Below are positions 17,995 to 33,300 of a stretch of 62,956 nt of DNA, one piece after another. Below the pieces are notes generated by a model, which saw only the letters and a list, made by a program, of their open reading frames with translations, did no database searches and had not been told where the DNA came from. Location: positions 1 to 62,956 of the forward strand of contig CAZWSU010000066.1 in NCBI GenBank assembly GCA_964636755.1, written 5' to 3'. Position 1 is the first letter of the stretch; each line of letters begins with the position of its first letter. A program made the position numbers and the translations under genes. The stretch is from an uncultured Desulfurococcaceae archaeon. GTDB taxonomy: Archaea; Thermoproteota; Thermoprotei_A; Sulfolobales; NBVN01.

Positions 17995-19725
17995 CTAAGA
18001 CTTAATCATTTCTTTAAGTCTCTTATTTATCTCACTTGGCTGAAGTATTTTAGTTAAGTGTGTTACCGTATACCCACTCGTTCTTAGCTTATGGGTTAAG
18101 TAGAGATACTTGACGGTGTGTGCTCTAGGATGCACTATTACGAAACTAGAGTTTTTAGGCAAGCCCTGCCTCTCTAATTCCTCAATTAGTGACTCGGATA
18201 AAACCCTATAGTACCTGTCTATAGATCCTAACGGCTCGTTAGCTACTCTAAGCTCTTCTATTAGGCTCAGCGACCCTTTCCTAACCCAGCTCTCGTAATT
18301 AAACCTTGACTCAATGTCCTCACTACTTATTATGAAATCCAACGCTTTTAGGACGTCGAGTATACCCCCCTTAACTAAGTATATCTTACCGTTAGGTAGC
18401 TTAAGGTAGAGGATTTTCACGTATTTTTCCATTAAGAGAGCGCTGTACGTGGCTTGTATCAAGTTATCTAATTCTACAGGGTTGGACGCGTCCCAGTCAG
18501 CAATGACTAGACTGGACCTCCCGCCACCCCCCTCACCGCTACGGGTGTAGACCTTAACAGCTAACTCGCCGGTACTCACGCTCTTCTTCCAGTGTATGCT
18601 CCTCGGGTGATCACCCGGGTAATACTCTCTAACACCTACGTAATCACCTAAGAAAGTCTTAGAAGTCTGAAGCTCTATGAATTCAAGCACTTTAGCTGGA
18701 ACCGTCCACCTAAACCTATATTTAATCAGGTCTCCGTAAAGTGTTGAAACCCCTGAACCAAACCCTTGACCACCGCTCACGCCCCCCTCACCCACAGCGC
18801 CTCCTGTGAGACCCGCGCTAGGCCCCGCACCACTCACGCCTACGTATCCACTAGCTGACTCACCCCCCAAACCACCCTTAAGCACCGGAACCCGTGGCGA
18901 GATAGCGACTTCGAGTTTGCCGAGATATATGATCGGGGACTTAACAAGCTCTACATACCTATTCAGAATCTCCCTAACACTCCTAACTAAAGTCAGGGAT
19001 TTAGGTACTGTCTTAACTCTGATTGAGTAAGGACCATGCGTAACTCGGGAAAACCCTCTTAAGTCACTTAAGACTACTTTGATTAAGTGCCTCCTAACCC
19101 CGGCTATGTTCGATGATAACTTAATAGTTAAGTGTTTAGAGCCCCTTAAGAACCCCCCTGCGGTAACGTTATCGTCTAGTAAGACCTTATAATACACTTC
19201 ATGCCCGGACTCTATACTTAAAGGAACCTCGACGTAATCGCCCAAATATGCTGAGAACGTTGCCCTGTGTAAGACGACGCGAGACTTAGAGATGCGAACG
19301 TAAGATATGAAGGTCACGACAAGTATGCCGGCTAAATATGAAGTAGCTGTAATTAAGGTTAGCGTTCTCAGTAAGTAAAGCGGGGTGAAAACTAAGGTCA
19401 CGGAAGCTAGCTTGAGAGATAGGTGCGTGTCTGAAGGGGTGTGTGACGCGTCATCGTAAGAGTATGGAAGTAGGAAAGACAGGATAACACTAAGTAGGGT
19501 GGATAATTGTGTGAGGCCTGATGAAAGCAAACACCAGGAAAAAACCGTGAGAAGTCTTGGCATACCCTGCAAGTAGAGGTAGAGAGCCGCGGCAACAACG
19601 CTGTAGAGCATGTGAATAGGGTTGCTCAAGACTAGAGAGTTATAGAAACCGGTAAGCACGATAAGCGGCGAAACCACTAAGTAAGCAGCCCTACCTTTCC
19701 TTAAATACATAATAAGCCACCACAC
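17995..19725 (-). CDS. Polytopic membrane protein with C-terminal DUF58 (vWA-like) domain; MoxR partner
   Basis: N-terminal ~150 aa of TM helices, a beta-rich middle domain, a Gly-rich linker, then the DUF58 signature FLGDYVGVREYYPGDHPRSIHWKKS. It is the last gene of the MoxR operon. Confidence 0.8.
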   Translation of the reverse strand: MWWLIMYLRKGRAAYLVVSPLIVLTGFYNSLVLSNPIHMLYSVVAAALYLYLQGMPRLLTVFSWCLLSSGLTQLSTLLSVILSFLLPYSYDDASHTPSDTHLSLKLASVTLVFTPLYLLRTLTLITATSYLAGILVVTFISYVRISKSRVVLHRATFSAYLGDYVEVPLSIESGHEVYYKVLLDDNVTAGGFLRGSKHLTIKLSSNIAGVRRHLIKVVLSDLRGFSRVTHGPYSIRVKTVPKSLTLVRSVREILNRYVELVKSPIIYLGKLEVAISPRVPVLKGGLGGESASGYVGVSGAGPSAGLTGGAVGEGGVSGGQGFGSGVSTLYGDLIKYRFRWTVPAKVLEFIELQTSKTFLGDYVGVREYYPGDHPRSIHWKKSVSTGELAVKVYTRSGEGGGGRSSLVIADWDASNPVELDNLIQATYSALLMEKYVKILYLKLPNGKIYLVKGGILDVLKALDFIISSEDIESRFNYESWVRKGSLSLIEELRVANEPLGSIDRYYRVLSESLIEELERQGLPKNSSFVIVHPRAHTVKYLYLTHKLRTSGYTVTHLTKILQPSEINKRLKEMIKS

Positions 19726-20530
19726 ATAGCAGGGAAACTAATAAAATAAGTGCTGGGTAAGTAACTTCATATGTGGTAGTTACTAGCCTCAAATACTCGA
19801 TGAAGTCTTTCTTAACCCACGATTGATCAATAACTAATCCCCTATCACTTACGAGGCAATCAATGAAGTCTTTATTAGCCTCAAATAACTCGTTCGTAAA
19901 AACCTGGGGGGAGAAAACAAGGATTAAACGACCCCCGCCATAACTAAGTGAGATCCCTAAAGGAAACGAGCCTAACGGCTCCTCAATATCCATGTAGCCG
20001 TTACCGTTTAAATCAACATAGGAGAAGTTACTGGAATACGCTACCACGTCAGTGTTCTTATCTGTTACGACATAATACGGCGTGTAGGTAGTGAGAGTAC
20101 AATTACAATGGTTTGAGAAGCCTAGCGGGTGAAACCTGTCACCTCCATTATAAATCATGTCGTAAATAACACTACTCGTAACAGTTAAGTTAAGTTTCGC
20201 GTAATGACTTAAGCTCTCAATAGCCCCCCAACCCCCAGAGAATATCACATATCCCCCCTCATTAACCAACCTCAAGATGATCTCTGCCTCACTTGACGTA
20301 ACGTTATCTAAGCGAATGATTAAATACACCGTGTCTCGAGGGCTTATATCACGTAACGTGCTCAGGTCCGTGATCACGAGAGCTTCGTAAGACTCTCTGA
20401 GTTTCGAGATACCGTTATCCCCATAATTAACAACGCTGTAGCTGGTTGTTGAGGGGAGTGTGAACATGATTACCAGCCCCACCATAACCCCTATCAACAA
20501 GCTGACCAAGAGTAGATTACTCACCTTCAT
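19691..20530 (-). CDS. Bitopic envelope protein, DUF4350-like
   Basis: N-terminal TM, then EAEIILRLVNEGGYVIFSGG and SYGGGRLILVFSPQVFTNELFEANKDFIDCLV, which match my recollection of DUF4350. C-terminal TM plus KER. Confidence 0.5.
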   Translation of the reverse strand: MKVSNLLLVSLLIGVMVGLVIMFTLPSTTSYSVVNYGDNGISKLRESYEALVITDLSTLRDISPRDTVYLIIRLDNVTSSEAEIILRLVNEGGYVIFSGGWGAIESLSHYAKLNLTVTSSVIYDMIYNGGDRFHPLGFSNHCNCTLTTYTPYYVVTDKNTDVVAYSSNFSYVDLNGNGYMDIEEPLGSFPLGISLSYGGGRLILVFSPQVFTNELFEANKDFIDCLVSDRGLVIDQSWVKKDFIEYLRLVTTTYEVTYPALILLVSLLCVVAYYVFKER

Positions 20531-22301
20531 GTCTCGTAACCTCCTCAGCTAACTCCACTGCCTCACGATAATCTTGCTTCTTACTAGAGTACAAATCCTT
20601 CTCAGTTATTATCAGTAATTTCCAGAGGGTGTTTCTGAGGAAACCGCTTAAGCCCGCTCTACTGAAATGCTCTCTGAGAGTCTCAGTAACCTTAGGTAAC
20701 GGGATTCCTAGCTTCCTCAGTGTTGCGTAGTAAAGCTCGGCGATCCTCGAGCTTATGGGGTAGGGTGACTTAAGATAAGAACTTACTTCCCGCACCACCC
20801 TCTTTACGGAGGTCTTGCCACCCACTACGTTACCTTTAATGAATATCATGAAGCTTCTCTCCTTATTAGAGACAAGGACTATTAAGAATATTGAGACTAA
20901 ACCCGTCAATAAGGCGGTGACGGGATTGACTACGAAGACCTGTCGTTGGTAGAGGTATGGCTCCTTCAAGTGTTGAGTAGGCTCTACCACTACGTTCAGG
21001 TTCGTAAGAAATGCTGGGAAGAATCCTACGAAAACTCTCGCAACTAAGACGTCGCTTAATGTGTACTCCCCCCTCAGCGCGCCACCAGCGTACACCTTAA
21101 CGCTTAACTGGCTTTCTTCAGGGTCATCGTTAATTAAGAGTATTGTTAAGAAGCCGTCGCCGGTGAAGAAGATCTCAGGAAATACTATTCTTACTTTAGG
21201 TATTCTGGGCAAGACCATGACAGGCTTAGTGATCGTCAGTCCTGCAGAGTCTTGAGTAGGGTGTACGGAAACCTTCAAGAGGCTGACACCAACAGTTAAA
21301 TCAAACGATGAGGTGTTGACGTAGTAGCGTGTTAAGCCGGGAACCAAACTCAAGTAGCCAACCAGTACGTCGCCGAACTCCACAGTAGCGTTATAGTAGT
21401 TGTCCGAGTATAAGTTCAGCTCAATAGAATCCCCCCTATATATGCTTGCAGGACATTCAACCCATACCTTAGGAACTCTATAAACAACTTTAAGTATTTT
21501 ATAATTCACGTAGTTCTCGCTGCTTGAAGTGTTGCGTGCCGCGATGATCAACACGAAAACTCCCTCTGGCCTAGTAGGAGTTTTAACGAATTCAGCGCTT
21601 GGGGTTCTCAGAAAGCCTACATACTTACCCCCACCTAATGACGTGATATTAGCGTATTCAATGAATCTTAGGTCAGGCCACGTGTAAAGGGAGGCACTAC
21701 TCAACGTTAGGGTGGGGTCCCCTAACGTCACCTCAAATTCTACGGGTTCTTCTGGGGTGTAGACTTCTTTATCTAACCTTACGTCAATGAGTCCGTTTGA
21801 CATGAGATATTTCGAGAATATTATTTGAGTTAAGCTCGGGATCAACTCGTCACTAATTTTCTTAACGCTTAACGAGATACTCGTTCTCAAGCTATTGCTT
21901 AATCCTGGGTCGTGTGCGCACGCGGACAATCTATTTACGTACTGACTAATTACGTCAGGTAATTTAGAATGTAGCTCGGAAAGCTCACTCAACATTCTAT
22001 GAGCTTCCTCTTTGGTTAGGGCCTCATCAACGGTCCGTGCGGAGAGGTTATGATATCTTAGTAGTAGGTCGTAGGAGTTCTTATGTAAGTTGCCTATGTC
22101 GCCCGGTATTGAAGCGCTACCTATGGATTGAATCATTCGGTAAGCACTGGGTTCTCCTTCTACCACAGCTCTTAAAGATTTATCGAGAAGTATTAACAGG
22201 TTTGAGCAATCCACTAGCTCAGGTTCTGACGCACTTGTTAAATAAGGCGTGGATATCGCGATCAAGACAACTAAGAATAGCGTTAACCCACCTATTCTCA
22301 T
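20517..22301 (-). CDS. Secreted/anchored protein with cytoplasmic DUF4129-like C-terminal domain
   Basis: Signal peptide, ~440-aa extracytoplasmic region, one TM (ALLTGLVSIFLIVLV), then AELYYATLRKLGIPLPKVTETLREHF...DYREAVELAEEV, which resembles DUF4129. Confidence 0.5.
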   Translation of the reverse strand: MRIGGLTLFLVVLIAISTPYLTSASEPELVDCSNLLILLDKSLRAVVEGEPSAYRMIQSIGSASIPGDIGNLHKNSYDLLLRYHNLSARTVDEALTKEEAHRMLSELSELHSKLPDVISQYVNRLSACAHDPGLSNSLRTSISLSVKKISDELIPSLTQIIFSKYLMSNGLIDVRLDKEVYTPEEPVEFEVTLGDPTLTLSSASLYTWPDLRFIEYANITSLGGGKYVGFLRTPSAEFVKTPTRPEGVFVLIIAARNTSSSENYVNYKILKVVYRVPKVWVECPASIYRGDSIELNLYSDNYYNATVEFGDVLVGYLSLVPGLTRYYVNTSSFDLTVGVSLLKVSVHPTQDSAGLTITKPVMVLPRIPKVRIVFPEIFFTGDGFLTILLINDDPEESQLSVKVYAGGALRGEYTLSDVLVARVFVGFFPAFLTNLNVVVEPTQHLKEPYLYQRQVFVVNPVTALLTGLVSIFLIVLVSNKERSFMIFIKGNVVGGKTSVKRVVREVSSYLKSPYPISSRIAELYYATLRKLGIPLPKVTETLREHFSRAGLSGFLRNTLWKLLIITEKDLYSSKKQDYREAVELAEEVTRHEGE

Positions 22302-22552
22302 CTCATTAAAACCTCATACACTCTACTACCTACTAGGAAGGCAAAGATAGAGAGTAGTAACGCGTGGATTAATCTCACCATCGTAGCTGACTTAGTTGAC
22401 GGTCTTGCAAGAGAGTAACTCACGTAGAAAGAGAGTATGTTGAGGGCTACGTACGCGTCAATCCTAGACTCGCTCAAGAGTAGCAAAGAAATATTGAAAG
22501 CTGATGAGAGCGCTACGTAAAGTAACACAAACCTCTCGGTAACCCCAACCAC
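22298..22552 (-). CDS. Small membrane protein (84 aa, ~3 TM)
   Basis: Hydrophobic ORF with a 4-nt stop/start overlap with the downstream gene, abutting the upstream gene. Confidence 0.5.
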   Translation of the reverse strand: MVGVTERFVLLYVALSSAFNISLLLLSESRIDAYVALNILSFYVSYSLARPSTKSATMVRLIHALLLSIFAFLVGSRVYEVLMR

Positions 22553-23245
22553 CTACTCAATCACCTCGAAAACGTAGTAAACCCCGCTCACAGTGTTTCC
22601 CGAATCACTAAGTTTTAAGTCCTTACCTATCAGTCTAGCAGTAGCTACGGCTGCTAAAGTCTTGAGAGGATCTAACGGCATCTTCTCAAACCTCTTTAAG
22701 ACCTTATTCACGTTTATTAAATCAACTCTGATAAGCTTTTCAGATAATTTAACGGCCACCCTACCGCACAAGCCTAGAGTGTCTACAAGAATTGAATTCA
22801 AGTTAGTCTCAACAACCTTCTCAGTAACCTCATTGACTTGAGTAACTTCCTCAAGAACGTTTTCTGCGGGTATTGCTAGGTAAGGTTCACCAAACTTAAC
22901 ACCTAGTCCCGGAATGACTGCTTCTGGCTTACCTCTCTTAAGCATGACTAACCTTAACTCGTTATCTACCCGCGCCACGTAGAAGTCTGACTCCAGGAGA
23001 TCTATGTTTTCTATGACGCTTGTTAAGGCGTTGTTAGTTAAGCTCAGGTACTCTATGAGGGAATTAATAACTGATTCCGAGACAGCGAAACTAAGCATTA
23101 ATAAGACGAGTCCTGTAAGAATAGACGACAAGGAAACACCTATTAAGGAAGGTTCTTGATTTACCACACCATATAATAAGATTAGGGAAGAGACCACGAG
23201 AATATTAGAACTCAAGATAAGTAGTGACTTACTCAAGCAAACCAC
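22553..23245 (-). CDS. Membrane-anchored protein of unknown function (2 N-terminal TM plus ~150-aa soluble domain)
   Basis: 230-aa ORF inside the MoxR operon. I recognised no motif. Confidence 0.5.
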   Translation of the reverse strand: MVCLSKSLLILSSNILVVSSLILLYGVVNQEPSLIGVSLSSILTGLVLLMLSFAVSESVINSLIEYLSLTNNALTSVIENIDLLESDFYVARVDNELRLVMLKRGKPEAVIPGLGVKFGEPYLAIPAENVLEEVTQVNEVTEKVVETNLNSILVDTLGLCGRVAVKLSEKLIRVDLINVNKVLKRFEKMPLDPLKTLAAVATARLIGKDLKLSDSGNTVSGVYYVFEVIE

Positions 23246-23889
23246 CTCACTACCAAAGGCTTTATGAGTATGTCCAGGTTAATCATGTAAGGAGTTTTAT
23301 TCTTATTTCTCTCATGGAACACCGCCTTAATTAAGAATAAGAAGAGATTACAGCAGAGAACGTAAGCGTTGACGTATAGTGCCGGACTCAAATATATTGT
23401 GAGAAAGCATGGGAAAATAAAGTATTTTAAGACAGTATTCAGGGAATATCGCTCCCTAAACAGCCTGTAAACGATGACATCCACAATAGAAGCTAGTGAG
23501 TACCTAACAGGAGTGGCTAAACCAACCCAAACACCTAGTAAGGCGCTAGCTAGCAAAACAACGGGTGTAGCGTTATTGAACACGTCCCTAACACTCAGGT
23601 AATCCCAGTAAGAACTCAGTAACGCGAGTACAGCAACCAGCAAAACCAAATCAACTAGGTAGTCCGGCAACCCTAAAATCTTGAAGACCGAGTATAATAA
23701 CGCGATAGTGACGTACATGAGGGGAACTAAGGTTGGCTTAACACCCTTGTAAACACCGTATAAGAACACGTTGTACGTAGCTATGAGTAGGAAGAAGAGC
23801 GCGGCCGCGTTAAGCAGGCTCGTACCAGCAACTACTGAGAACAGATTCACTGTAGAGGAGATTAAGTATGTTGTGAGTTCCAATAGCAT
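23233..23889 (-). CDS. Polytopic membrane protein of unknown function (~6-7 TM)
   Basis: 218-aa hydrophobic ORF, 10 nt downstream of moxR and overlapping the next gene by 13 nt. Confidence 0.5.
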   Translation of the reverse strand: MLLELTTYLISSTVNLFSVVAGTSLLNAAALFFLLIATYNVFLYGVYKGVKPTLVPLMYVTIALLYSVFKILGLPDYLVDLVLLVAVLALLSSYWDYLSVRDVFNNATPVVLLASALLGVWVGLATPVRYSLASIVDVIVYRLFRERYSLNTVLKYFIFPCFLTIYLSPALYVNAYVLCCNLFLFLIKAVFHERNKNKTPYMINLDILIKPLVVRWFA

Positions 23890-23899
23890 GATTCATCAA

Positions 23900-24859
23900 C
23901 TATTTAGGTACGGGCACCTTATTGAGTGCTTCCTCAACTAAAGACTCGGGGGTGATTCCCTCGGCTTCATACTCGTCCTTAACCCTAATCTTATGAGCTA
24001 TTACGGGAACCGCCAAGCTCTTCACATCATCCGGTATGACGTAGTCCCTCCCATCCATTAAGGCGTACGCCCTACTAATTATCGCTAAGTGTATTGAAGC
24101 TCTATGAGAAGGTCCGTAAAGAACTGCTTCATGATTCCTTAAATACGTCACCAACCTAACTATGTAGTCGCTTATCGCGTCACTAACGTGAACTAACTCA
24201 TTAATCCTGTTACTTATGTTGAACACAACGTCCGGCGTGGTTACCGGACTCACCGGCGGGTCCACGACCATGGTAGATCTCCTAACGATCTCTACCTCGT
24301 CATCAGGAGGGTTGTAATAGCTTGGAACCCTAACAGCGAATCTGTCCGCAAGGGTTTCCATAATCTGATACGCGCCGGCAGCTATCTTAGGAGAAACCTC
24401 AGTGGCTACAACCATGAAAGGCTTGGGGAGGGAGTAAGGTACGCCGTCTATAGTCACTCTATACTCTTGCATCGCTTCAAGAAGAGCTGCTTGAGATCTA
24501 GTAGGGACTCTGTTAAGCTCGTCAATCATTAATATGTTAGTGAATACCGGGCCCTTAACGAACTCCTTACTCCCGTCCAGCCTATACACGTGGAATCCCA
24601 AGATATCCGTAGGCAGTATGTCTGGATGTCCCTGAACCCTCCTAAATTCCCCTCTGATCACCTTAGAGAGGGATTTGGCTAACAGAGTCTTACCTGTCCC
24701 AGGATAGCCTTCTATCAGTAAGTGACCACCGCTAAACAAAGTGGTCACGGCTAGTTTAACGACCTCAACCTTTCCTACGTAAACCCTCCTCAACTCCTCC
24801 ACAGCATCTCTTAAGACCTGCCCTGCTTCCTCTAACTCCACTTCACGTCCCTCAGTCAC
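23900..24859 (-). CDS. moxR: MoxR-family AAA+ ATPase
   Basis: Walker A GYPGTGKTLLAKSL, Walker B ILMIDELNRVP, and QAALLEAMQEYRVTIDG. 319 aa, typical MoxR size. Confidence 0.92.
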   Translation of the reverse strand: MTEGREVELEEAGQVLRDAVEELRRVYVGKVEVVKLAVTTLFSGGHLLIEGYPGTGKTLLAKSLSKVIRGEFRRVQGHPDILPTDILGFHVYRLDGSKEFVKGPVFTNILMIDELNRVPTRSQAALLEAMQEYRVTIDGVPYSLPKPFMVVATEVSPKIAAGAYQIMETLADRFAVRVPSYYNPPDDEVEIVRRSTMVVDPPVSPVTTPDVVFNISNRINELVHVSDAISDYIVRLVTYLRNHEAVLYGPSHRASIHLAIISRAYALMDGRDYVIPDDVKSLAVPVIAHKIRVKDEYEAEGITPESLVEEALNKVPVPK

Positions 24860-26550
24860 AACCTAATAAACTTAAGGGCTTTCCGTATAAAAATAATTGA
24901 GTTCGGAAGCCAAATCACTATTAAGTAAGCGGTTAAGAACAACGCTAGCGCTTGCGACGTTAGTATAGACCAGTAGAGAACATCCTCAAGAGCTCGGGTC
25001 GAGCCCCCGCTGGCCGAGACCCCCAGAAGCCCTTCCTCAACCTCCTTAATAACTGGGTCAATGCTCGCCTCCCTAGACAACCTCATTAAGGATACCCTAA
25101 CGTATGCTACGACTTTTTCCTCAGGCGCTTTAGTAATGACGGGTATCAAGACGTATCCTAAGACCCCTCTAACCCCCTCTTTCTCAATCTCTATGAAATA
25201 CAGCCTAGTCCCGTTAACTAACTTACTCCAAGAATTAAACACCTCATATCCCTGCAACGTCAAGCATAACTGCCATGTGTGGAGCCTGCCAGGAGTCTCA
25301 ACAACCTCAACATACCCAGTGTAACTCTTGTTTCCTACGACCAAGACATCGTAAACGCTGAAAGCGCCTAGAACCCTAGTTAAGTAGCTGTTATAGGAGT
25401 AGCGAACAAGTCTTAAGTTCTTGCTAGCGTTGAACACATACTTAGGAGGGTAACTCATGAAATCACTTAACTCAGCTAGGTCAACGAATATGCCGTTACC
25501 TAATGAGGAAGTTTCGTGACTAACGATTATCTGAGATAATGTTATGGTGTAAGCAGAAAAGAACACTAGTATGACTACGAAAACCCCGGCTACATACCCC
25601 CACTCAACGTTAACTCTCCTCAGCAAAGGTCTCGGAGTAACGTATCTTAATCCAGCGTATTTGTCTGCTATTATGAAAGCCGTGAGAACTGAAATAGCTG
25701 AGTAAATCGCTGAAGGTAGGTGGTGGAAAAGTCCCATACCCGCTTCGAGGCCGTAACTAGTGCTAGCCAGCACAACCAACGTAACCCTAATCAAATTACC
25801 TAAGAAACCTATGAGGGTAGCTAATGAAAGAGAAGCTAAAATACCTGCTAACTTCCTCCTCATACCGTACGGGCTGAAAACAGCTAAGTACACTATAACT
25901 GGGACCACAGCAAGAACTGAGGACATAGTGACTATCCCGGTACACGCGACTTCCACGTCAAACATCGCCGACCCTGAAGGAGTTTCTATCATTAATCGAG
26001 TGTAAGCCGGGCTCTCAAGGAGGGTTGCTCCAGTCAATAACGCCGCTAACCTACCAACAAGTCTTGAAAGATAAGGGGTTATGAAGTCTATGAAGGAGGT
26101 TGGCAGGGGAACTATAAGGAATAGGGAGAGCAACGGTATTAAGTCTTTCAGGGTTGCCGGACTATAGACTAATATGATTAGAGACAACATAATAAGCACT
26201 AAACTAATGCTCCCGTACTGAATCGAGTGCTCCGCGTCAAAAAGCCTTGAAATATAGAAGACCAAACTCAAGCTAGCTAGCAAGGCTGAAGCCAGAACCT
26301 TGCTGACCCTCACCTCGTAAGACAAGCCTAAATTCCTGAGTAGGTAGTAGAAGAGAACCACTACAGAGAATAACACCACTATCAAGTAACTATACTCTTC
26401 TACCAACGCTAACCTTATGTAGTCTTCGAGAACGCCTCTGTAAAGAGACTCAAAAAGAAAAACCATGATGCCTGTAAGGATTGTGAACCCGGCTACAACG
26501 ACCCTTCTATAATCTTGTAACTCGCTCACGTACATGTACATCCTACCCAC
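24856..26550 (-). CDS. Exosortase/archaeosortase-family transpeptidase fused to an EpsI-like extracytoplasmic domain and a terminal TM
   Basis: ~8 TM N-terminal half carries the family's three signature residues in context: Cys203 (DVEVACTGIV; codon TGT at 25942-25944 on the minus strand), Arg255 (GNLIRV) and His276/277 (GLFHHLP). The C-terminal ~200 aa contain HTWQLCLTLQGYEV, which resembles the EpsI motif H-[ST]-P-x-x-C-L-x-x-x-G-W. Confidence 0.7.
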   Translation of the reverse strand: MGRMYMYVSELQDYRRVVVAGFTILTGIMVFLFESLYRGVLEDYIRLALVEEYSYLIVVLFSVVVLFYYLLRNLGLSYEVRVSKVLASALLASLSLVFYISRLFDAEHSIQYGSISLVLIMLSLIILVYSPATLKDLIPLLSLFLIVPLPTSFIDFITPYLSRLVGRLAALLTGATLLESPAYTRLMIETPSGSAMFDVEVACTGIVTMSSVLAVVPVIVYLAVFSPYGMRRKLAGILASLSLATLIGFLGNLIRVTLVVLASTSYGLEAGMGLFHHLPSAIYSAISVLTAFIIADKYAGLRYVTPRPLLRRVNVEWGYVAGVFVVILVFFSAYTITLSQIIVSHETSSLGNGIFVDLAELSDFMSYPPKYVFNASKNLRLVRYSYNSYLTRVLGAFSVYDVLVVGNKSYTGYVEVVETPGRLHTWQLCLTLQGYEVFNSWSKLVNGTRLYFIEIEKEGVRGVLGYVLIPVITKAPEEKVVAYVRVSLMRLSREASIDPVIKEVEEGLLGVSASGGSTRALEDVLYWSILTSQALALFLTAYLIVIWLPNSIIFIRKALKFIRL

Positions 26551-26609
26551 GATTTACTAGAGATATCAAGCCAAAATAAAGTAGTGATTCTAACCTCCTT
26601 GAAGGCCGC

Positions 26610-27269
26610 TTAAACGAGCTTGCCGCGTACTAGGAACTTACTAATTCCTATGCCGTAGTCCGCGCTTAAGTCTGTAGTGGTTATGAGTATTGCAGTCTCT
26701 GGAAGCAGTGTCTTAAGTAAGCTCACGATTTTAGATGTGGTGATCTCGTCTAAGTTTGAGAACGGCTCGTCAGCAACCAGCAGCTTAGGCTTCTTAACCA
26801 ACGCTCTAGCTATAGCTACCCTTTGCCTCTCACCACCACTTAACTCAGTAGGGTACCTATTCTCCAATCCTCCTAAACCAACCTGGTCTAAAACATACCT
26901 AACCCTATCCTCCCTCTCTTTCTTCGGAATCCCCAGCAAAGCCAGAGGTAACTCAACGTTCTCGTAAATCGTGAGCTTCGATAAAAGAACATATTCTTGA
27001 TCAACATACCCTATATACTTGAGCCTCAAAAGCGACCTGAGGTCATCTTTTGAGTTAGTTAAGTCAATACCCATGAATCTCACGGAACCCTCGTCAGGAA
27101 CTAACTGAAGTGAGGCTATCTTAGCCAGAGTCGTCTTACCAACACCGCTCCTCCCCCTCACCACCAAGACATCACCACTCTTCAGGCTGAGAGACACATC
27201 CACTAAAACGAACTCGTTACCTACCACCTTACTAACATTCCTTAACTCAAGCAACTCCAAACCCATCAC
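26610..27269 (-). CDS. ABC transporter ATP-binding protein (MacB/LolD/FtsE-like)
   Basis: Walker A GRSGVGKTTLAK, signature LSGGERQRVAIARAL, Walker B LLVADEPFSNLD. 219 aa. Confidence 0.9.
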   Translation of the reverse strand: MMGLELLELRNVSKVVGNEFVLVDVSLSLKSGDVLVVRGRSGVGKTTLAKIASLQLVPDEGSVRFMGIDLTNSKDDLRSLLRLKYIGYVDQEYVLLSKLTIYENVELPLALLGIPKKEREDRVRYVLDQVGLGGLENRYPTELSGGERQRVAIARALVKKPKLLVADEPFSNLDEITTSKIVSLLKTLLPETAILITTTDLSADYGIGISKFLVRGKLV

Positions 27270-28762
27270 CTCATAACGTAGACAGCACCGTTATTGTAAA
27301 TGAAGTCCTTAACCAAATTCAGCGAACTCAATCCTCGTATCATGTAGATATCAATAGGTGATAAGACGTACCCAAACCTGAAGTTATCAGAGTAGAACAC
27401 CGTCGGCGAACCCCTGCTAGTCTCAGTTAACTCAAGACCGCAAAAGAGATCCACAGTCACGGCATCACCTACTAAATACTTTACCTTAACGTCACCACAT
27501 AGCTTCCCGCTACCGAGGTGTTTGATTAAATTACTCAACCCGACTACCTCACGCTCACCATACTTCCAGTAATAAGTAATTGAGTCACCGCAGAAGATTA
27601 AGTTAATCAGTAATGTTGCCGTGATTATCGTGGAGATAATGAGTGCGGACGCCGCGTATCTTTCAGTACTTGCTCGACGCACATTCAGAGAAGCCGTAAT
27701 CGCTATAGCGGTGAAGAACAGGTAGTTAAGTATTCTGTGCAATATAGTCATGAGAGGTGGGGAATATATAGCGATATATTGGAGTCCCACCGATATCGGG
27801 AGGAGTGTAGACGGTATCAGAAGTTTGTGATCTTCTCCTCCCTTATCTCGTGTTGGGAGGGAAGACAAGATGATGACGGGAACCACGTACAAGAGTGTAG
27901 GGAATATCCCTAGAAGCTTAGAATTCGATACTAAGATTGCCGTAATCCCCGGAATTAAGATCAGTAAGGTCTTGGTGAAATCTCCTCCTACGAGCGCGTA
28001 CCAGCCATACGTCGCAGTACTCAAAACAAATAATATTAGGAAGTCAATTAATTCAAACCTAATCATCAACCCTCTCCAACCGTAAGAAGCCATGTAGGTA
28101 AAGTAGGTAAGAGTGAGTAGCGAGAACGCGAGAACACATCTCCTAATACTCACGACATGAGAGGAGCCCTCTAAACGCTTCACCAAAGTTGTGAATATGT
28201 AACTGCCGATGAAAACGATTATCATTAAGGGAGTTAAAGGGTGTGAGATCGTTAGCGAGAAAGCCACTAAAAGAGCTAGTACGGAAGTACTCAAATAACA
28301 TCCAGTAATCACTAAAGCAATAAACAATAAGGCTAAGGGGTATGCGTAAACTTCCTTTAAAGTAGTTGACGTGAAAATAACTAGAGACGGTATGGAAGTG
28401 AAAACTAGCGTGCTTAGCAAAGCCGAGTGTGTTCCTCTATACTTCTTGACTATGACGTAGGTAGTAACTAATGCTGAGGCTTGAGTAATGATGACTCCCG
28501 CGAATCTAAAGAAGTAAGTTGCTTCCAAACCTGTGAGCACTTCATACAAAGCACTCTCAAGAATTACCGCAGGCCATTTGTTGTGATACCCACCTAATAT
28601 GGAGTCATCCCATACCCTATACTCAGGGCTTGAGAGGATAGTTCTGCTTAACCTTATTAAAGGCCACGTATCCGTTGAGAAGGGCTGGTTAGTTATTAAG
28701 GTCGGTGTTAACCTAATCAATAATGCTGCGAGAATAACCAAGAATAAGGCTTTATTCCTCAC
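27266..28762 (-). CDS. Polytopic membrane protein (~11-12 TM plus C-terminal soluble domain), possibly GT-C-type glycosyltransferase or polymerase
   Basis: 498 aa. The first extracytoplasmic loop has an acidic motif (PFSTDTWP). The overall layout resembles GT-C / PMT-like enzymes. This assignment is a guess. Confidence 0.4.
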   Translation of the reverse strand: MRNKALFLVILAALLIRLTPTLITNQPFSTDTWPLIRLSRTILSSPEYRVWDDSILGGYHNKWPAVILESALYEVLTGLEATYFFRFAGVIITQASALVTTYVIVKKYRGTHSALLSTLVFTSIPSLVIFTSTTLKEVYAYPLALLFIALVITGCYLSTSVLALLVAFSLTISHPLTPLMIIVFIGSYIFTTLVKRLEGSSHVVSIRRCVLAFSLLTLTYFTYMASYGWRGLMIRFELIDFLILFVLSTATYGWYALVGGDFTKTLLILIPGITAILVSNSKLLGIFPTLLYVVPVIILSSLPTRDKGGEDHKLLIPSTLLPISVGLQYIAIYSPPLMTILHRILNYLFFTAIAITASLNVRRASTERYAASALIISTIITATLLINLIFCGDSITYYWKYGEREVVGLSNLIKHLGSGKLCGDVKVKYLVGDAVTVDLFCGLELTETSRGSPTVFYSDNFRFGYVLSPIDIYMIRGLSSLNLVKDFIYNNGAVYVMR

Positions 28763-29894
28763 TCCTCACGAACCCCCATGAAACACCTACAAGTAGTAAG
28801 GAAGTCTTAGAAGAGAACACGAATAGCGTATCATAAAGAGACATCTGCGGACTCATGCGATGGCTGAGTACCTCCAGCTTAATTAAATCATTAAAGTATT
28901 GAAGTATTGTGAAAGCAACTAAGACAGCTACTGCAACGTAAGTCAGGGTCTGTAGAGTTAAGAGTGCGAAGACCCTCTTCCTGGAAATCCCTAGGTATCT
29001 TAACACCGCAATAGCCTTCTTAGCTGACCTAAAGATATGTTCGCCGATAAGTATGTCGCTGATTATCACTAAAGCCGCGACGGTGTAGGATAGGGAGAAA
29101 ATGAAGTCTCTATGTATTCCTAGCTTAGCTACGTATATTTCCGGGATATCACCATGCAACTCGTGAACTAAGATATTACCTCGCTGTGATAAAACTAGTA
29201 AAGCTTTTTGAAGTAGCTTTATGTCTTCAGGATTGAGACCTATCCTCGCACTTATACTGCTTAAGATGCTCAAGTTCTTTGCTCGAAGAATTACGACCGA
29301 GTATTGATTGTTGCTTATTCCTCTAATAGTCCTAGATAACTCAATACTAGCTATGATCTCATAGTTTAGGAGTGAGTGGAATTGCTTAACACCACAAACC
29401 GTTACGAGAACAGGTTCTTTAATGAATGGCGAGTATAGCGCGAGCGTCTCTCCCTCACTAAGATTTAATTCTCTCGCTAGACCCTCACCGACGACGACGC
29501 AGGAAATATTGCTTCCTGAGCCATGATAATGATGAAAACTAGAGAACTCGGTTTTTTCAATCCCCCTAATAACTACGGTCTTACCCTTGAAGTACGCGAT
29601 GGAGAACACCAATGATTCCACGCTAATACCTTCTAAGTCGTTCACTAAATTTCTCACGTATTCCTCACTAACTACGGAAGTTAGTGGGGATATGGCGTAA
29701 CTAGAGATGACTAGACCTTCACCGTTAGTTAAGAGAAGGTTCTCGTAAAAGTTGTAGAGTGAGGTGAAAATACCTAAAATACTTAAAGAAATAGTTGATA
29801 GCAGGACTAGCAAGACTATAAAGCTTGCGTGCGTAATTATGGTGAGTGATTTAACGGTTGCTCTAAAACAACTAATTACTAACACGTCAATCAC
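28752..29894 (-). CDS. FtsX/MacB-type ABC permease (paralogue 1)
   Basis: Layout is 1 TM, a ~230-aa extracytoplasmic domain, then 3 TM. The FtsX-family loop RSAKKAIAVLRYLGISRKRVFALLTLQTL is present. Confidence 0.7.
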   Translation of the reverse strand: MIDVLVISCFRATVKSLTIITHASFIVLLVLLSTISLSILGIFTSLYNFYENLLLTNGEGLVISSYAISPLTSVVSEEYVRNLVNDLEGISVESLVFSIAYFKGKTVVIRGIEKTEFSSFHHYHGSGSNISCVVVGEGLARELNLSEGETLALYSPFIKEPVLVTVCGVKQFHSLLNYEIIASIELSRTIRGISNNQYSVVILRAKNLSILSSISARIGLNPEDIKLLQKALLVLSQRGNILVHELHGDIPEIYVAKLGIHRDFIFSLSYTVAALVIISDILIGEHIFRSAKKAIAVLRYLGISRKRVFALLTLQTLTYVAVAVLVAFTILQYFNDLIKLEVLSHRMSPQMSLYDTLFVFSSKTSLLLVGVSWGFVRSEE

Positions 29895-30855
29895 CTAACG
29901 TGAAAGCTAGGTAACCTATCGGGAAGTTTAAGAGGGAGATGAGAGCTGCTAGCACTAAGTATCCTGCGTGTGGTTCAGGCATTGGTAGCACAGGGTTCAT
30001 CAGAATCTTCATCACAGCGATTCCAGCACCCACTATTAAGTAGCTTAACGCGATAGTGTATAGAGTTACTAGCCCGGCAATCATCGATGTAGATAACGTG
30101 AAGACTAAGCGTATATTAGAGGTGCTTAGACCTTGCATACTAAGGATTCTTAATTCTTCGTCCAGTCTTTCAAGTAGTTTTGTGTTAGCTAGGTAGAGCA
30201 CAGGTATGTAAGACAAGAAGATTATCAATGCATAGCCTTCAGAAAACTCAGTAAGCTCCCTGATTAAGGATCCTATGACGAATTCACTAACTTCCCTGGC
30301 ATTACGCACGCATATAAATCCCCTATTCAGTCCTGCAATCTCGTTAATCCCTTCTAATATCAGGAAATTCTCTAGTTTCTCGTCGTGGGAGTACGTCACG
30401 CAGGCTGTAATACATTCCTTACCCACACATACCTCAATAAACTCTCCTAGAGATGTATTCAGTTCTTTCAACAACGCAGAACTTGCTGAGACTCTCGCAT
30501 ACCTGCAGTAGTCTTCGGAGACTTTCAGGCGTATGTTTGTGAGATTCTTTAACCCTATCACATCGCTTACTACGATGACTTGCGTCTGCAGCAGAGTTTC
30601 ATGATGAATTATAGTCACTAAACCGTACTTTATCGGAAGGCAACAGTTACTTGGGTCTATATTTTCGTCTATCGTTATGGAAGTACCGTTAACGTAGCCT
30701 AGCAATCTTTCTGAGTAAGCCGCGACAGAGTTGACTGTAAGAGATAAAGTGAGGAAGATGAGTGTGGGAGGTAACACAACCAGCAAAACAATCATGGATA
30801 ACCGCTTTCTAATAATAGAAAGCAACAAGATAGTGAGTCCGTGTCTCCTCTTCAT
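29887..30855 (-). CDS. FtsX/MacB-type ABC permease (paralogue 2)
   Basis: Same 1+3 TM topology, with EELRILSMQGLSTSNIRLVFTLSTSMIAG. Highly diverged from paralogue 1. Confidence 0.65.
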   Translation of the reverse strand: MKRRHGLTILLLSIIRKRLSMIVLLVVLPPTLIFLTLSLTVNSVAAYSERLLGYVNGTSITIDENIDPSNCCLPIKYGLVTIIHHETLLQTQVIVVSDVIGLKNLTNIRLKVSEDYCRYARVSASSALLKELNTSLGEFIEVCVGKECITACVTYSHDEKLENFLILEGINEIAGLNRGFICVRNAREVSEFVIGSLIRELTEFSEGYALIIFLSYIPVLYLANTKLLERLDEELRILSMQGLSTSNIRLVFTLSTSMIAGLVTLYTIALSYLIVGAGIAVMKILMNPVLPMPEPHAGYLVLAALISLLNFPIGYLAFTLGD

Positions 30856-31382
30856 GATCTCATCTTTGCCTGTTTAACGTGTCTGTATTTCCTGTAAGCT
30901 GCTCCAAAACCCCCGGTGATTGAGTAAACAAGTAACGTTACTAGAACAGGGGTTAGTCTTATCCCCCAAGGAGTGTAGTTAAGTATTAAACCTAGTAAGG
31001 GAACGATAGCTAGTGAGAGCCCTATTGAGAGAGCCAGTCTCTCTAAATCACTTAAGGATCCCTCGTCAGGGTAAAGTAGCTCAACCGTGACGTAACCGAC
31101 TAGGAAGAGAACTAGTATAGATCCGGCAACATACCTTAAGTAAATAATCTGAGGTATTAGATCTGTGAGGTAAACAGATACCACGGAGATAGCGACTAAA
31201 GCAATCGTGGTCCAGAGCCAGGAAGAGTAATCAGGTCTCAGTAAATATTCTGCGAAGACTTTCGGGGGGTTAGGATCAATTATCTCTATCTTACCTTCTA
31301 AAACCTCATCATAAACCTTCTTCAAAACCCTGTAGTTGTAGCCTAAAGACTTGACGTATTCCTCGAGTGTTTTGTTAGGCAA
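30852..31382 (-). CDS. DUF1616-like membrane protein (TM half), with short N-terminal soluble segment
   Basis: LERLALSIGLSLAIVPLLGLILNYTPWGIRLTPVLV matches the DUF1616 membrane-core signature as I recall it. Confidence 0.6.
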   Translation of the reverse strand: MPNKTLEEYVKSLGYNYRVLKKVYDEVLEGKIEIIDPNPPKVFAEYLLRPDYSSWLWTTIALVAISVVSVYLTDLIPQIIYLRYVAGSILVLFLVGYVTVELLYPDEGSLSDLERLALSIGLSLAIVPLLGLILNYTPWGIRLTPVLVTLLVYSITGGFGAAYRKYRHVKQAKMRS

Positions 31383-31383
31383 T

Positions 31384-31884
31384 TTAATGAACCCCCGCTA
31401 CCTTGACATGTAAGTGAGTCCATATCCCGCTGTAGACCCACACACCCCTACTTGCTTCATAGACCCATAACTCGAAGATTAAGGTAATGTTACCCCCGAC
31501 TAACGACTCATTAATTATCACAGGAACTCTAGTTCTTATTAATACCTCCTCGTTGTGATCAAGGAGTCTAGTAAAATTCATTAAGGTCTTTAAGTCAGCT
31601 GAGGTAGTGTTAGTGGGTAGTTCGTTGTTTTTACCTATTTTATACCTGACTTGAGCTAGTACTGGGTAACCCTTATAGTTAAAGATGGAGAGACATAAGT
31701 CTACGTCACTCCCAGCTACCACGAACTCAGGATAACTACCTATCTTGCAATCCTTGTCTAGCAGACCCAGAGCTACGAAAGGTTCTGTGACTTCAGGTCT
31801 TAACAAAGTAGCTACTGAGATCACCGAACCAATCACTACTATGGCGAGAATTACCGCGAATACCTCATCGTTTACTACGTTCAT
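31384..31884 (-). CDS. DUF1616-like extracytoplasmic beta-domain protein with its own N-terminal TM
   Basis: TEPFVALGLLDKDCKIGSYPEFVVAGSDVDLCLSIFNYKGYPV...YKIG resembles the C-terminal half of DUF1616 proteins. Confidence 0.5.
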   Translation of the reverse strand: MNVVNDEVFAVILAIVVIGSVISVATLLRPEVTEPFVALGLLDKDCKIGSYPEFVVAGSDVDLCLSIFNYKGYPVLAQVRYKIGKNNELPTNTTSADLKTLMNFTRLLDHNEEVLIRTRVPVIINESLVGGNITLIFELWVYEASRGVWVYSGIWTHLHVKVAGVH

Positions 31885-32302
31885 TAATTAAAACCCACCT
31901 CTTCCTACTCTTAAACCATACGTAAACGTAGAGTCTGGGGAGCAGTAAGTAGACTAGCGCTGGCAGAGAAAGTATTGCTGCTGCCGTGGCGTACTTGATC
32001 ACGGTTTGCGAGAAAACTATGTTATCGGCCTTAGACTCAAGCTCACTTAAGTTAGCCTCGATTCCGATCATCAACTCCATCGCTTCTTCAGACCTATTCG
32101 CTTCAAGAAGTTGCAGGACGTTTTTTAAGACCGTGACATATTGACTCACGTTAATTCCTTTCAAAGCTAAGTCCACGATCCTACCGTATAAATCAAGAAA
32201 CTTCTCGTAAGGATCCCCGCATGAGACTATGGCTGACTGAAGAACTATACTTGTTAGCAAGGTGAGCAAAATCAGCAACGCGAAGGTCCTCAACGAATGC
32301 AT
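31865..32302 (-). CDS. Small secreted helical protein with C-terminal TM anchor and basic tail; first gene of the cluster
   Basis: Signal peptide MHSLRTFALLILLTLLTSIVLQSA, ~90 helical residues, a TM, then KSRKRWVLINERSKR. ATG at 32302. Confidence 0.45.
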   Translation of the reverse strand: MHSLRTFALLILLTLLTSIVLQSAIVSCGDPYEKFLDLYGRIVDLALKGINVSQYVTVLKNVLQLLEANRSEEAMELMIGIEANLSELESKADNIVFSQTVIKYATAAAILSLPALVYLLLPRLYVYVWFKSRKRWVLINERSKR

Positions 32303-32343
32303 TCCGCATCATCTAATTTATTAACCTGAAGTTTTTATTATAT

Positions 32344-33300
32344 TTGTTGGTGTTAGGGACGCCCTACGACGACCTAACAATAATTATACCAACCCTTAAG
32401 GAAGCCGAGAGCATAGGTCTGGTTCTAGATGAGTTATTCTCAGTAGGCATTCCGCCAGACAAGATATTAGTTGTTGACGGCTACAGCGATGACGGAACAC
32501 GTGAGATAGCTGAGAGCAAGGGCGTGAAGGTAGTCTTACAGGAAGGTTTTGGTAAGGCAGACGCTATTAAGACGGGTTCTAAGCTGGTTAAGACAACCTA
32601 CGCTCTAGTAATGGATGGAGATTACACATACCCAGCGACGCGCGTACCTGAACTCTACAGCAAGATTTGCGAGGGCTACGACCTAGTCTTAGGTTATAGG
32701 AAGTACGTGGAGAAGGGAGCTATGAATAACCTCTTCAAGTTCGGGAACAAAATAATAACGACGTTCGTTAACGTTCTCTACGGTACTAAGGTTTCCGATG
32801 TCTTAACAGGTATGTATGTGGTTAGATCGAGTGTTCTGAAGGAGATTTTTTACGAGGCGAGAGACTTCAGCATAGAGATAGAGATCTTCTCTCACGTAGC
32901 TAACACAACAGGCAGAATCTCTGAGGTCCCTATCGAGTACAGGAAGAGGAGAGGTGTTAAGAAACTGAGAGTCTCACACGGCTTTAAGATAGCCTGGGAT
33001 TTAATCAGGTTAACATGGAGGTATAACCCCAGCTACTTAATATTCCTGCTAGGCGCTGCTCTCTTAATTCCGGGACTCACCTTAGGAGCTTACGTAGCTT
33101 ATCATTACTTCTTCACAGGAATCAAATACTATCTTAAAGGGCTAGTAGCAATACTACTAACTCTAGCAGGTTTCCAATCCTTATTAATGGCTATCATGTC
33201 TATCTACACTAAGAGGATAGAGATGAGGACAATACATAAAATTAATGAGTTAAAGATGTGTATTGACGAGTTAAGAGCGAGTCTTGAGAAGACTAGATGA
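32344..33300 (+). CDS. GT2-family glycosyltransferase (dolichyl-phosphate sugar synthase-like) with two C-terminal TM helices
   Basis: Contains IIIPTLKEAESIG, VVDGYSDDGT and MDGDYTY (DxD), which are GT-A/GT2 hallmarks. It diverges from the envelope cluster across a 41-nt A/T-rich spacer. Confidence 0.85.
   Translation: MLVLGTPYDDLTIIIPTLKEAESIGLVLDELFSVGIPPDKILVVDGYSDDGTREIAESKGVKVVLQEGFGKADAIKTGSKLVKTTYALVMDGDYTYPATRVPELYSKICEGYDLVLGYRKYVEKGAMNNLFKFGNKIITTFVNVLYGTKVSDVLTGMYVVRSSVLKEIFYEARDFSIEIEIFSHVANTTGRISEVPIEYRKRRGVKKLRVSHGFKIAWDLIRLTWRYNPSYLIFLLGAALLIPGLTLGAYVAYHYFFTGIKYYLKGLVAILLTLAGFQSLLMAIMSIYTKRIEMRTIHKINELKMCIDELRASLEKTR

Follow-up and report, generated by a model that had tools for sequence, protein, structure and literature searches.

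A putative new archaeosortase subfamily linked to a MoxR-DUF58 module in hyperthermophilic Thermoproteota

Why should an archaeosortase, an enzyme predicted to work on the outer face of the membrane, be encoded in one run of genes with a cytoplasmic MoxR-type ATPase? The question is raised by contig CAZWSU010000066.1 (assembly GCA_964636755.1) of an uncultured Desulfurococcaceae archaeon, of which positions 1 to 62,956 were analyzed and are referred to here as the window. Between positions 17995 and 32302 it carries 15 consecutive open reading frames (ORFs), all on the minus strand in the ORF listing, among them genes for an archaeosortase and for the proteins of a MoxR/DUF58/DUF4350/DUF4129 module. 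To our knowledge, archaeosortases have been characterized only in Euryarchaeota, the known ones being without dedicated partners, and we know of no function assigned to the module, which is common in bacteria, including mycobacteria and Pseudomonas. The original prediction, made from the DNA alone, knew of no described link between an archaeosortase and the MoxR/DUF58 module, and we likewise found no paper in the literature on an archaeosortase with MoxR, or on DUF4129 with MoxR. The linkage recurs across related genomes, and we give roughly even credence to the reading that the locus comprises two linked, conserved units that mature cell-surface (glyco)proteins in hyperthermophilic Thermoproteota, with a MoxR-DUF58 motor serving the archaeosortase.

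The archaeosortase and its conserved linkage

The archaeosortase gene (24856-26550, minus strand) encodes a protein of 564 aa. Family hidden Markov models (HMMs) match its core above their curated thresholds (PF09721, 63.4 bits against a cutoff of 25.7; TIGR04178, 27 bits against 23), which upholds the exosortase/archaeosortase call first made from motifs. No ArtA-G or Xrt subfamily model in NCBIfam passes, the weak matches to XrtN and XrtS exception models lying far below their cutoffs, and public sources name the protein only generically. Because the family models match above threshold and no subfamily model does, the protein appears to represent a new archaeosortase subfamily. Of the 132 family members, 118 retain Cys203, 126 retain Arg255 and 110 retain His276. 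Conserved Cys, Arg and His residues at the outer ends of membrane helices are presumably the catalytic set, in keeping with TIGR04178 and the ArtA mutagenesis work, and the three residues were equated with those of ArtA by motif, not by direct alignment. Their retention across the 132 members suggests that the enzyme is probably active.

The neighborhoods of archaeosortase family members were compared from 99% down to about 25% identity, with 16 window proteins mapped onto each locus by tblastn (loci carry numbers such as L003). In 16 distinct loci, at identities down to about 25%, the archaeosortase gene is found within the MoxR block or next to it. These derive from Desulfurococcaceae (Zestosphaera, Thermosphaera, Thermogladius, Ignisphaera), an Acidilobales metagenome-assembled genome (MAG), a 'Sulfolobales archaeon' MAG, Geoarchaeota and other MAGs. 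The block reads MoxR / ~218 aa / ~230 aa / ~84 aa / ~600 aa (DUF4129-like) / DUF4350 / DUF58-like, and the archaeosortase takes one of three positions relative to it: first in the block, before MoxR, in most loci; directly after MoxR and ahead of the other block genes (L012, L016); or last, after DUF58 (Geoarchaeota L006/L017, Acidilobales L024). A gene that moves yet stays in its operon is a classical sign of functional coupling. In three distant loci (L020, 15543-17819; L022, 16398-18791; L024, 7530-10004), moreover, gene fusion has joined DUF4350 and the DUF58-like protein in one chain of 758-824 aa, a Rosetta-stone arrangement which implies that the separate window proteins interact. Movement within the operon together with gene fusion argues strongly, on the evidence of gene order, for a physical and functional unit.

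Since the same genes recur together in 16 distinct loci, we take the arrangement to lie beyond chance, a judgment drawn from recurrence and not from statistics on the window. The original prediction described a fifteen-gene supercluster and proposed comparing neighborhoods for a repeated adjacency of the archaeosortase gene to moxR/DUF58 and to a pair of FtsX-type permease genes. The first adjacency is recurrent in the 16 loci; the second recurs in several of them but is looser, movable and sometimes absent. The clustering is therefore conserved, but not as a single unit of fifteen genes. It is a tight 8-gene core plus recurrent, movable accessory sets, which take in the other seven genes and the glycosyltransferase gene (GT2) beside them.

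An AlphaFold2 model of the archaeosortase (predicted local distance difference test, pLDDT, 86.5; predicted template modeling score, pTM, 0.86) consists of a multi-pass exosortase core (residues ~15-300), an extra long membrane helix (317-352), an alpha+beta ectodomain (~354-511 in the model, ~345-515 as delimited for the protein) and a final membrane helix (518-563). No relative was found in the PDB by sequence search or by fold, the Foldseek resemblances (PsbP, MTC28, DcrB and START-like alpha+beta folds) being non-significant (E >= 0.014). Within the ectodomain, a region at window positions 25051-25518 (minus strand, residues about 345-500) carries the motif GYVEVVDTPARLHTWQLCLTLQGY, in which Glu415, His424, Cys429 and Gln433 are near-invariant, kept in 116-129 of 132 members. 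These residues could form a second active site, a metal-binding site or a partner for Cys203.

This C-terminal domain was at first thought to be EpsI-like, an identity that failed every test run. EpsI (PF11984/TIGR02914) gave no Pfam match in 11 full-length members at E <= 5 and no NCBIfam match in 15 domain sequences at E <= 10, and neither a PDB sequence search nor Foldseek against the PDB gave a link, in structure libraries that hold no EpsI structure. A profile of the ectodomain run against 1.84 billion proteins returned 96 matches, nearly all of the same archaeosortase architecture (about 500-590 aa), so that the ectodomain appears to be specific to this family. A tblastn search with the archaeosortase core for bacterial exosortase/EpsI loci on plasmids found nothing.

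The MoxR block and its movable neighbors

All genes of the block lie on the minus strand. The MoxR gene (23900-24859) encodes a predicted cytoplasmic AAA+ ATPase of 319 aa, in which AAA_3 (E = 1e-41, 142 bits) and AAA_lid_2 (E = 4e-20) are matched; its closest solved structure is the MoxR protein 2r44 (E = 1e-60), and identity among related loci is 46-73%. With an AAA_3 core, an AAA_lid_2 and a DUF58-like gene in the same operon, it belongs to MoxR proper. At the other end of the block, the divergent DUF58-like protein (17995-19725, 576 aa) begins with a membrane region and ends, beyond a Gly-rich linker, in a domain with the motif GDYxGxREYxPGDxxRxIHWKKS. PF01882 reaches 16.1 bits against a cutoff of 23.4 and covers only profile positions 2-33, while all five orthologs match at the same motif, in which REYxPGD...HWK is invariant. 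The linker, a low-complexity stretch at window positions 18730-18880 (minus strand, residues about 285-335), splits the first soluble domain from the DUF58-motif domain, and its length is very variable between orthologs in the alignment.

In the DUF4350 protein (19691-20530, 279 aa), an N-terminal anchor precedes an extracytoplasmic DUF4350 domain (PF14258, E = 6e-10, 40.1 bits against a cutoff of 30.4, profile positions 7-169 of 181), and a membrane helix closes the C terminus. Next to it, a single-pass DUF4129-like protein (20517-22301, 594 aa) carries a signal peptide and an ectodomain of ~430 aa in which no Cys or His is invariant; its one membrane helix leads to a cytoplasmic tail, where a conserved stretch, ETLREHF...[EA][KR]DLYS (ETLREHF...EKDLYS in the window), follows the last membrane helix. 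DUF4129 (PF13559) does not match the window protein and matches two of six orthologs at E = 0.0036; no PDB relative was found, and a homolog search returned seven close relatives only. Of the four module calls in the original prediction, MoxR and DUF4350 thus hold for the window proteins themselves, whereas DUF58 falls below its cutoff and DUF4129 finds no match in the window, the former being recovered through all of its orthologs and the latter, weakly, through two.

Three small membrane proteins complete the block. The polytopic 218-aa protein (23233-23889) is a conserved member by position, with a similar-sized gene in its place in most loci, and it and five orthologs have no match in Pfam, NCBIfam or PADLOC. 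The 230-aa protein (22553-23245), an N-terminal membrane hairpin followed by a soluble domain of ~165 aa with no consistent family match, and the 84-aa protein (22298-22552) both have tblastn orthologs in every near-family locus whose sequence covers the position; the 84-aa orthologs in L020 and L022 have a weak precomputed match to DUF8044. In 10 orthologs, the three proteins gave no consistent Pfam match and no SpoIIM or RDD HMM match, and their equivalence to the mycobacterial SpoIIM/RDD proteins is positional only and unproven.

In transcription order, the 14 junctions of the 15-gene run are an overlap of 20 nucleotides (nt), a gap of 1, overlaps of 4, 8, 11 and 4, a gap of 59, an overlap of 4, a gap of 10, an overlap of 13, an abutting pair and overlaps of 4, 14 and 35 nt. 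These recomputed values, and the count of 15 one-strand ORFs, are identical to those given originally. A crude hydropathy scan found at least one membrane segment in every product of the cluster except the MoxR and ABC (ATP-binding cassette) ATPases, in line with the claim that only the two ATPases are soluble and the others are membrane or secreted proteins.

The 59-nt gap (26551-26609, minus strand) separates the archaeosortase from the ABC ATPase gene. It contains a TATA-like box, TTTATTTT, at 26573-26580, about 23-30 nt upstream of the archaeosortase GTG start at 26550. A/T-rich boxes of a similar kind precede the archaeosortase gene in L009, L010 and L003, making four loci with the window, and the archaeosortase is the first gene of the block in loci without ABC genes. 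The gap is thus a probable promoter of the 8-gene archaeosortase-MoxR unit. The position of TTTATTTT and the similar boxes elsewhere fit an archaeosortase-led transcript that is separate and probably leaderless, and with it the suggestion of two transcription units divided at this gap. In L003, a direct repeat of ~44 nt (4797-4841 and 4862-4905) stands just upstream of the archaeosortase and spans a TATA-like GATATAAAT as well as the beginning of the gene, from its start codon through its first codons; the repeat may be either a real duplication or an assembly artifact.

Beyond the gap, and still on the minus strand, lie the accessory genes, given here in order of rising coordinates. The ABC ATPase (26610-27269, 219 aa) is of the FtsE/LolD/MacB type (ABC_tran, E = 1e-32), and its best NCBIfam matches are FtsE, bacteriocin-export, LolD and DevA models, all below their equivalog cutoffs. 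It is followed by a polytopic 498-aa protein (27266-28762) for which neither the window sequence nor three orthologs gave an HMM match. Its AlphaFold2 model (pLDDT 68), compared with the PDB by Foldseek, had GT-C enzymes for all of its top 26 matches (STT3, PglB, AglB, DPY19, ALG9/12, AftA, ArnT), with probabilities of 0.96-1.00, E values of 9e-5 to 6e-3 for 24 of the 26 and query-normalized template modeling scores of 0.27-0.49. Asp31 is invariant in the predicted first outer loop (PFSTDTWP), and on this modeled structure we accept a GT-C fold.

Two permease genes come next. Permease 1 (28752-29894, 380 aa), of the FtsX/MacB type, has one membrane helix, an ectodomain of ~215 aa and a C-terminal FtsX membrane bundle; the FtsX model gives E = 2.4e-5 and 24.8 bits against a cutoff of 25.5, and lolCE gives E = 4e-5. 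The 322-aa protein encoded at 29887-30855 is a probable second, divergent FtsX-type permease, with the same layout of one helix, an ectodomain and a helix bundle. The window protein has no match, its L011 ortholog matches FtsX over the C-terminal 110 residues (E = 0.003), and no pairwise similarity was found between the two permeases. DUF1616 is split between a 176-aa N-terminal membrane half (30852-31382; PF07760, E = 1e-26, profile positions 3-121 of 307) and a 166-aa C-terminal ectodomain half (31384-31884; PF07760, E = 1e-5, 25 bits against a cutoff of 31.6, profile positions 151-263), the gene for the C-terminal half being transcribed ahead of the other. The same split and order are seen in L003, L005, L011 and L024, and L020 and L022 have a full-length DUF1616 protein of 302-336 aa instead.

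The first gene of the run (31865-32302) encodes a secreted protein of 145 aa. In its alignments, the C-terminal anchor is conserved more strongly than the ectodomain (S-[ILV]-P-x-L...LLPR...W..R[KR].W), and its gene directly adjoins the archaeosortase in L003/L004 and L024, making it the best candidate for an archaeosortase substrate. Across a 41-nt spacer (32303-32343), a GT2 gene diverges on the plus strand (32344-33300). Its product, with Glycos_transf_2 at E = 3e-20 and two C-terminal membrane helices, scores 199 bits against TIGR04182 (AglJ), below the equivalog cutoff of 325, and is best described as an AglJ-like member of the dolichyl-phosphate-sugar synthase type, not as a demonstrated AglJ. 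For these neighbors, the ABC ATPase and GT2 assignments made from motifs are borne out, and the GT-C-like call is supported by fold with no sequence HMM match. The two FtsX permeases are recovered below threshold only, the second through an ortholog, and of the two DUF1616 halves the N-terminal one is secure and the C-terminal one sub-threshold.

These sets travel to differing degrees. The 145-aa protein and the two DUF1616 halves occur together beside the block in L001, L003, L005, L006, L009 and L024, and in L011 the two halves only were detected, without the 145-aa protein. The GT2 gene adjoins the module in five loci (L001, L009, L020, L022, L024). The set of ATPase, GT-C and two FtsX genes keeps the same internal order in L005, L009, L011 and L012; in L010, where the sequence ends early, it is partly present, with the GT-C gene next to the ABC ATPase gene; in L024 it stands 5.5 kb from the block; and in L003/L004 and L008 it is absent beside the block. 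The flank of L001 (2148-6064) is packed with toxin-antitoxin-type genes (HEPN/nucleotidyltransferase pairs, PIN/RHH) unrelated to the module.

Surface protein maturation and its alternatives

What the comparisons show are the identities of the domains, catalytic residues that are intact, a linkage conserved through three archaeosortase positions and the DUF4350-DUF58 fusions, and on this basis we propose that the locus works as two units. The first (17995-26550) would join the archaeosortase to the archaeal counterpart of the prokaryote-wide MoxR/DUF58/DUF4350/DUF4129 module, together with the three small membrane proteins. In it, the archaeosortase would act as a membrane cysteine transpeptidase on one surface protein or a small number of them, cutting off the C-terminal anchor and re-attaching the protein. 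A MoxR hexamer, docked at the inner face of the membrane through the DUF58 cytoplasmic domain and the DUF4129 tail, could use ATP to assemble, activate or reset an outward complex made of the DUF4350 domain, the ectodomain of the 594-aa protein and that of the archaeosortase. The second unit (26610-32302 and the divergent GT2 gene) would carry out extracytoplasmic glycosylation: the GT2 enzyme may load a sugar onto dolichyl phosphate, the GT-C enzyme may transfer it on the outer face, and the LolCDE/MacB-like ABC system, with one ATPase and two unlike FtsX permeases, may perform mechanical work, either within the membrane or at its outer surface. The clients of this glycosylation could be the same proteins that the archaeosortase processes, or their acceptor.

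Hydropathy and the archaeosortase model guide the placement of the parts. MoxR, the DUF58 C-terminal domain (whose sidedness we infer), the DUF4129 tail, the GT2 catalytic domain and the ABC ATPase would lie on the cytoplasmic side, and the DUF4350 domain, the ~430-aa ectodomain and the ectodomains of the archaeosortase, the FtsX permeases and DUF1616 on the outer face. A complex that reaches from outside through the membrane to the inside is what the DUF4350-DUF58 fusion fits.

Several observations weigh against this proposal. The linkage of archaeosortase and MoxR is not universal. In the cultured isolate Thermogladius calderae 1633 (CP003531), a divergent archaeosortase, TCELL_0112 (L023, 10001-11668), stands alone, with no MoxR block within 10 kb; the Thermogladius MAGs (L014, L015) have the linked version, which suggests archaeosortase paralogs with different partnerships. 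In L018 a non-MoxR gene lies downstream of the archaeosortase, and L021 has block genes with no MoxR in the part covered. The DUF58, DUF4129 and FtsX assignments, made by sequence comparison, fall below curated cutoffs, and the GT-C model, with its pLDDT of 68, is of moderate confidence only. The case for the 145-aa substrate comes from six sequences, and its conserved S-x-P lies inside the hydrophobic stretch and not clearly ahead of it. A scan of the window for C-terminal anchors recovered a coiled-coil stalk protein, its 305-aa neighbor, the DUF4350 protein and a few unlikely ORFs, and from so few anchored proteins in 63 kb no cognate C-terminal sorting signal could be defined. Finally, the parallel with Pseudomonas aeruginosa drawn below assumes that PA2875 is a MoxR protein, that PA2874 is a DUF58 protein and that TgpA carries DUF4129, identities that do not come from the text cited there.

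An alternative hypothesis is that the locus assembles a glycan, exopolysaccharide (EPS) or matrix, with the exosortase-like enzyme acting on or with a secreted polymer and the MoxR block controlling its assembly or export. Bacterial EPS loci, with EpsH, provide a precedent, and glycosylation genes are constant companions of the block: besides the AglJ-like GT2 and the GT-C protein, L020 and L021 have Rml and GT1/GT4 genes in the vicinity; L020 carries genes of the dTDP-rhamnose pathway, and in L021 GT1/GT4 genes stand within the block itself. These genes speak equally for the glycosylation of surface proteins proposed above. The want of a sorting signal also agrees with a polymer, as does the recording of the archaeosortase family under the species name Thermosphaera aggregans, an organism reported to lack a surface layer (S-layer) (PMC5744192). 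However, the characterized members (ArtA, and exosortases as now understood) all act on protein C termini, and the Cys, Arg and His residues are retained here. Pairs of GT2 and GT-C enzymes glycosylate proteins as well, and encoded beside the enzyme is a candidate protein substrate whose C-terminal anchor is strongly conserved. We therefore regard polymer assembly as unlikely, though worth keeping in view.

The original prediction favored a dedicated machine for processing, anchoring, extracting or quality-controlling envelope (S-layer) proteins, here a tetrabrachion-like stalk protein and a subtilase, whose genes are 2.5 kb away from the cluster, on the far side of a binding-protein ABC importer of three genes. 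The stalk protein (7843-11208, minus strand, 1121 aa) has, from Pfam and a reading of its sequence, a beta-rich head, a coiled-coil stalk of ~400 residues and a C-terminal anchor with a basic tail, and the same sources identify the subtilase (11271-15500, minus strand, 1409 aa) as an S8 enzyme; the pair resembles tetrabrachion and the STABLE protease of Staphylothermus. ArtA of Haloferax processes the S-layer glycoprotein (PMC5744192), which lends the idea some weight. In the other loci compared, however, tblastn searches with the stalk, subtilase and binding-protein sequences recovered no homolog in the 10 kb to either side of the archaeosortase gene, and the stalk C terminus shares no motif with the conserved anchor of the 145-aa protein. 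The proximity of the pair in the window thus looks incidental, and, given also the reported lack of an S-layer in Thermosphaera aggregans, a dedicated S-layer role is unsupported; we think it quite improbable. Directly downstream of the tetrabrachion-like gene, the 305-aa protein noted above (6853-7770, minus strand; no Pfam match) has an N-terminal signal-like segment, a C-terminal membrane helix and a basic tail (...TAFATPLILCLATLVWGLAGVFMARRFTHKH), and may be a further anchored envelope protein. A tblastn search with it against all fetched loci gave no match.

The MoxR block might also be a nucleoside triphosphate-dependent conflict or defense system of the MoxR-vWA type that merely stands beside envelope genes, given that PF20030 (bpMoxR, of the MoxR-vWA-beta-propeller ternary systems) matches the ATPase with 32 bits against a cutoff of 27. 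AAA_3 is far stronger, at 142 bits, and no beta-propeller or canonical vWA partner (with a metal ion-dependent adhesion site, MIDAS) is present. PADLOC assigned no defense family to the 10 proteins submitted (the eight block proteins, the GT-C protein and permease 1), its sole match being MoxR to mad8 at the P-loop level (E = 3e-5). The partners are all membrane or ectodomain proteins, and synteny of the block is stable across orders, unlike that of patchy defense islands, which leaves the defense reading largely refuted and very improbable. Least credible of all is an incidental co-directional packing of unrelated membrane genes: long same-strand runs are common in compact archaeal genomes, and the ABC/GT-C and DUF1616/145-aa sets do shift place, the former being sometimes absent (L003/L004, L008), but for the 8-gene core the incidental clustering that the original prediction gave as its own refuting case is refuted by recurrence in 16 distinct loci, down to ~25% archaeosortase identity, in three gene orders and with a gene fusion.

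In these hyperthermophilic Thermoproteota, genetic linkage ties a distinct archaeosortase subfamily to an AAA+ chaperone module. A partner enzyme whose chemistry is known is the first functional clue for a widespread orphan MoxR module, for which C-terminal processing, lipid anchoring and ATP dependence become concrete questions. More tentatively, and as a generalization that could well prove wrong, the MoxR/DUF58/DUF4350/DUF4129 module may be an ATP-driven transmembrane device that controls outward-facing cysteine transpeptidases, namely the archaeosortase here and a transglutaminase-like enzyme in bacteria. Were this true, a sortase-type surface-anchoring reaction would for the first time be coupled to ATP hydrolysis in the cytoplasm, and the Rv3689-Rv3695 and TgpA modules would gain a testable function. 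The unusual pairing of a GT-C protein with a LolCDE-like ABC system could, for its part, bear on how archaeal envelope proteins are glycosylated and positioned at very high temperature.

Comparison with known systems

The accessory unit combines features of two known types of system. Like LolCDE and MacB (type VII) transporters, it would pair an FtsE/LolD-like ATPase with two unlike four-helix permeases, putatively of the FtsX type, that bear large ectodomains. Like systems built of a GT2 enzyme, a flippase and a GT-C enzyme (ArnC/ArnT, CsbB/YfhO), it pairs a polyprenyl-phosphate-sugar GT2 with a GT-C transferase. It differs from both in that the GT-C gene is wedged between the ATPase and permease genes, an arrangement of which we know of no description, and in that the permease HMM scores lie below their cutoffs; unlike the Lol system, it belongs to archaea, which have no outer membrane for hand-over.

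With ArtA of Haloferax volcanii and its superfamily, the archaeosortase shares a multi-pass core that matches the family HMMs and conserved Cys, Arg and His residues at helix ends, and the expected chemistry would be that of ArtA, in which the C-terminal anchor is removed and the protein re-attached. Unlike ArtA, it continues beyond the core for about 250 further residues, which form an additional membrane helix, an ectodomain specific to the family and, last, another membrane helix. It occurs in Thermoproteota instead of Euryarchaeota and inside a MoxR operon, and no PGF-CTERM-like signal was identified for it.

In gene content, the block resembles the Rv3689-Rv3695-type module (MoxR2), for which we know of no assigned function: MoxR, DUF4350 and small polytopic membrane proteins occur in both, and the DUF58-like protein would correspond to the DUF58 protein of that module, in which no sortase-type enzyme is reported. 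In Mycobacterium chelonae, the DUF58, MoxR, DUF4350, SpoIIM-like and RDD genes have adjacent locus tags and were all downregulated in the same comparison, with Rv3689-Rv3695 given as their Mycobacterium tuberculosis counterparts (PMC8191103).

Bacterial MoxR-DUF58-transglutaminase operons likewise combine a MoxR-proper gene and a DUF58 gene (DUF58-like in the archaeal block) with an outward-facing membrane cysteine enzyme. Unlike in those operons, the cysteine enzyme here is an archaeosortase and not a transglutaminase fold; DUF4129, which we take to be the cytoplasmic tail of TgpA-type proteins, would reside here on a separate, apparently non-catalytic protein of 594 aa; and the archaeal block has a DUF4350 protein and three small membrane proteins besides. 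In P. aeruginosa, PA2875, PA2874 and tgpA are co-transcribed and tgpA is essential (PMC3507681), and the bifidobacterial PFNA cluster has the order fn3 / aaa-atp(MoxR) / duf58 / tgm (PMC8430577, PMC12067865). The PFNA cluster also encodes a large protein with Ig/FN3-type ectodomains. By analogy, the bacterial MoxR-DUF58-transglutaminase-like operon would be the nearest functional parallel to the archaeal block, with the archaeosortase taking the place of its enzyme.

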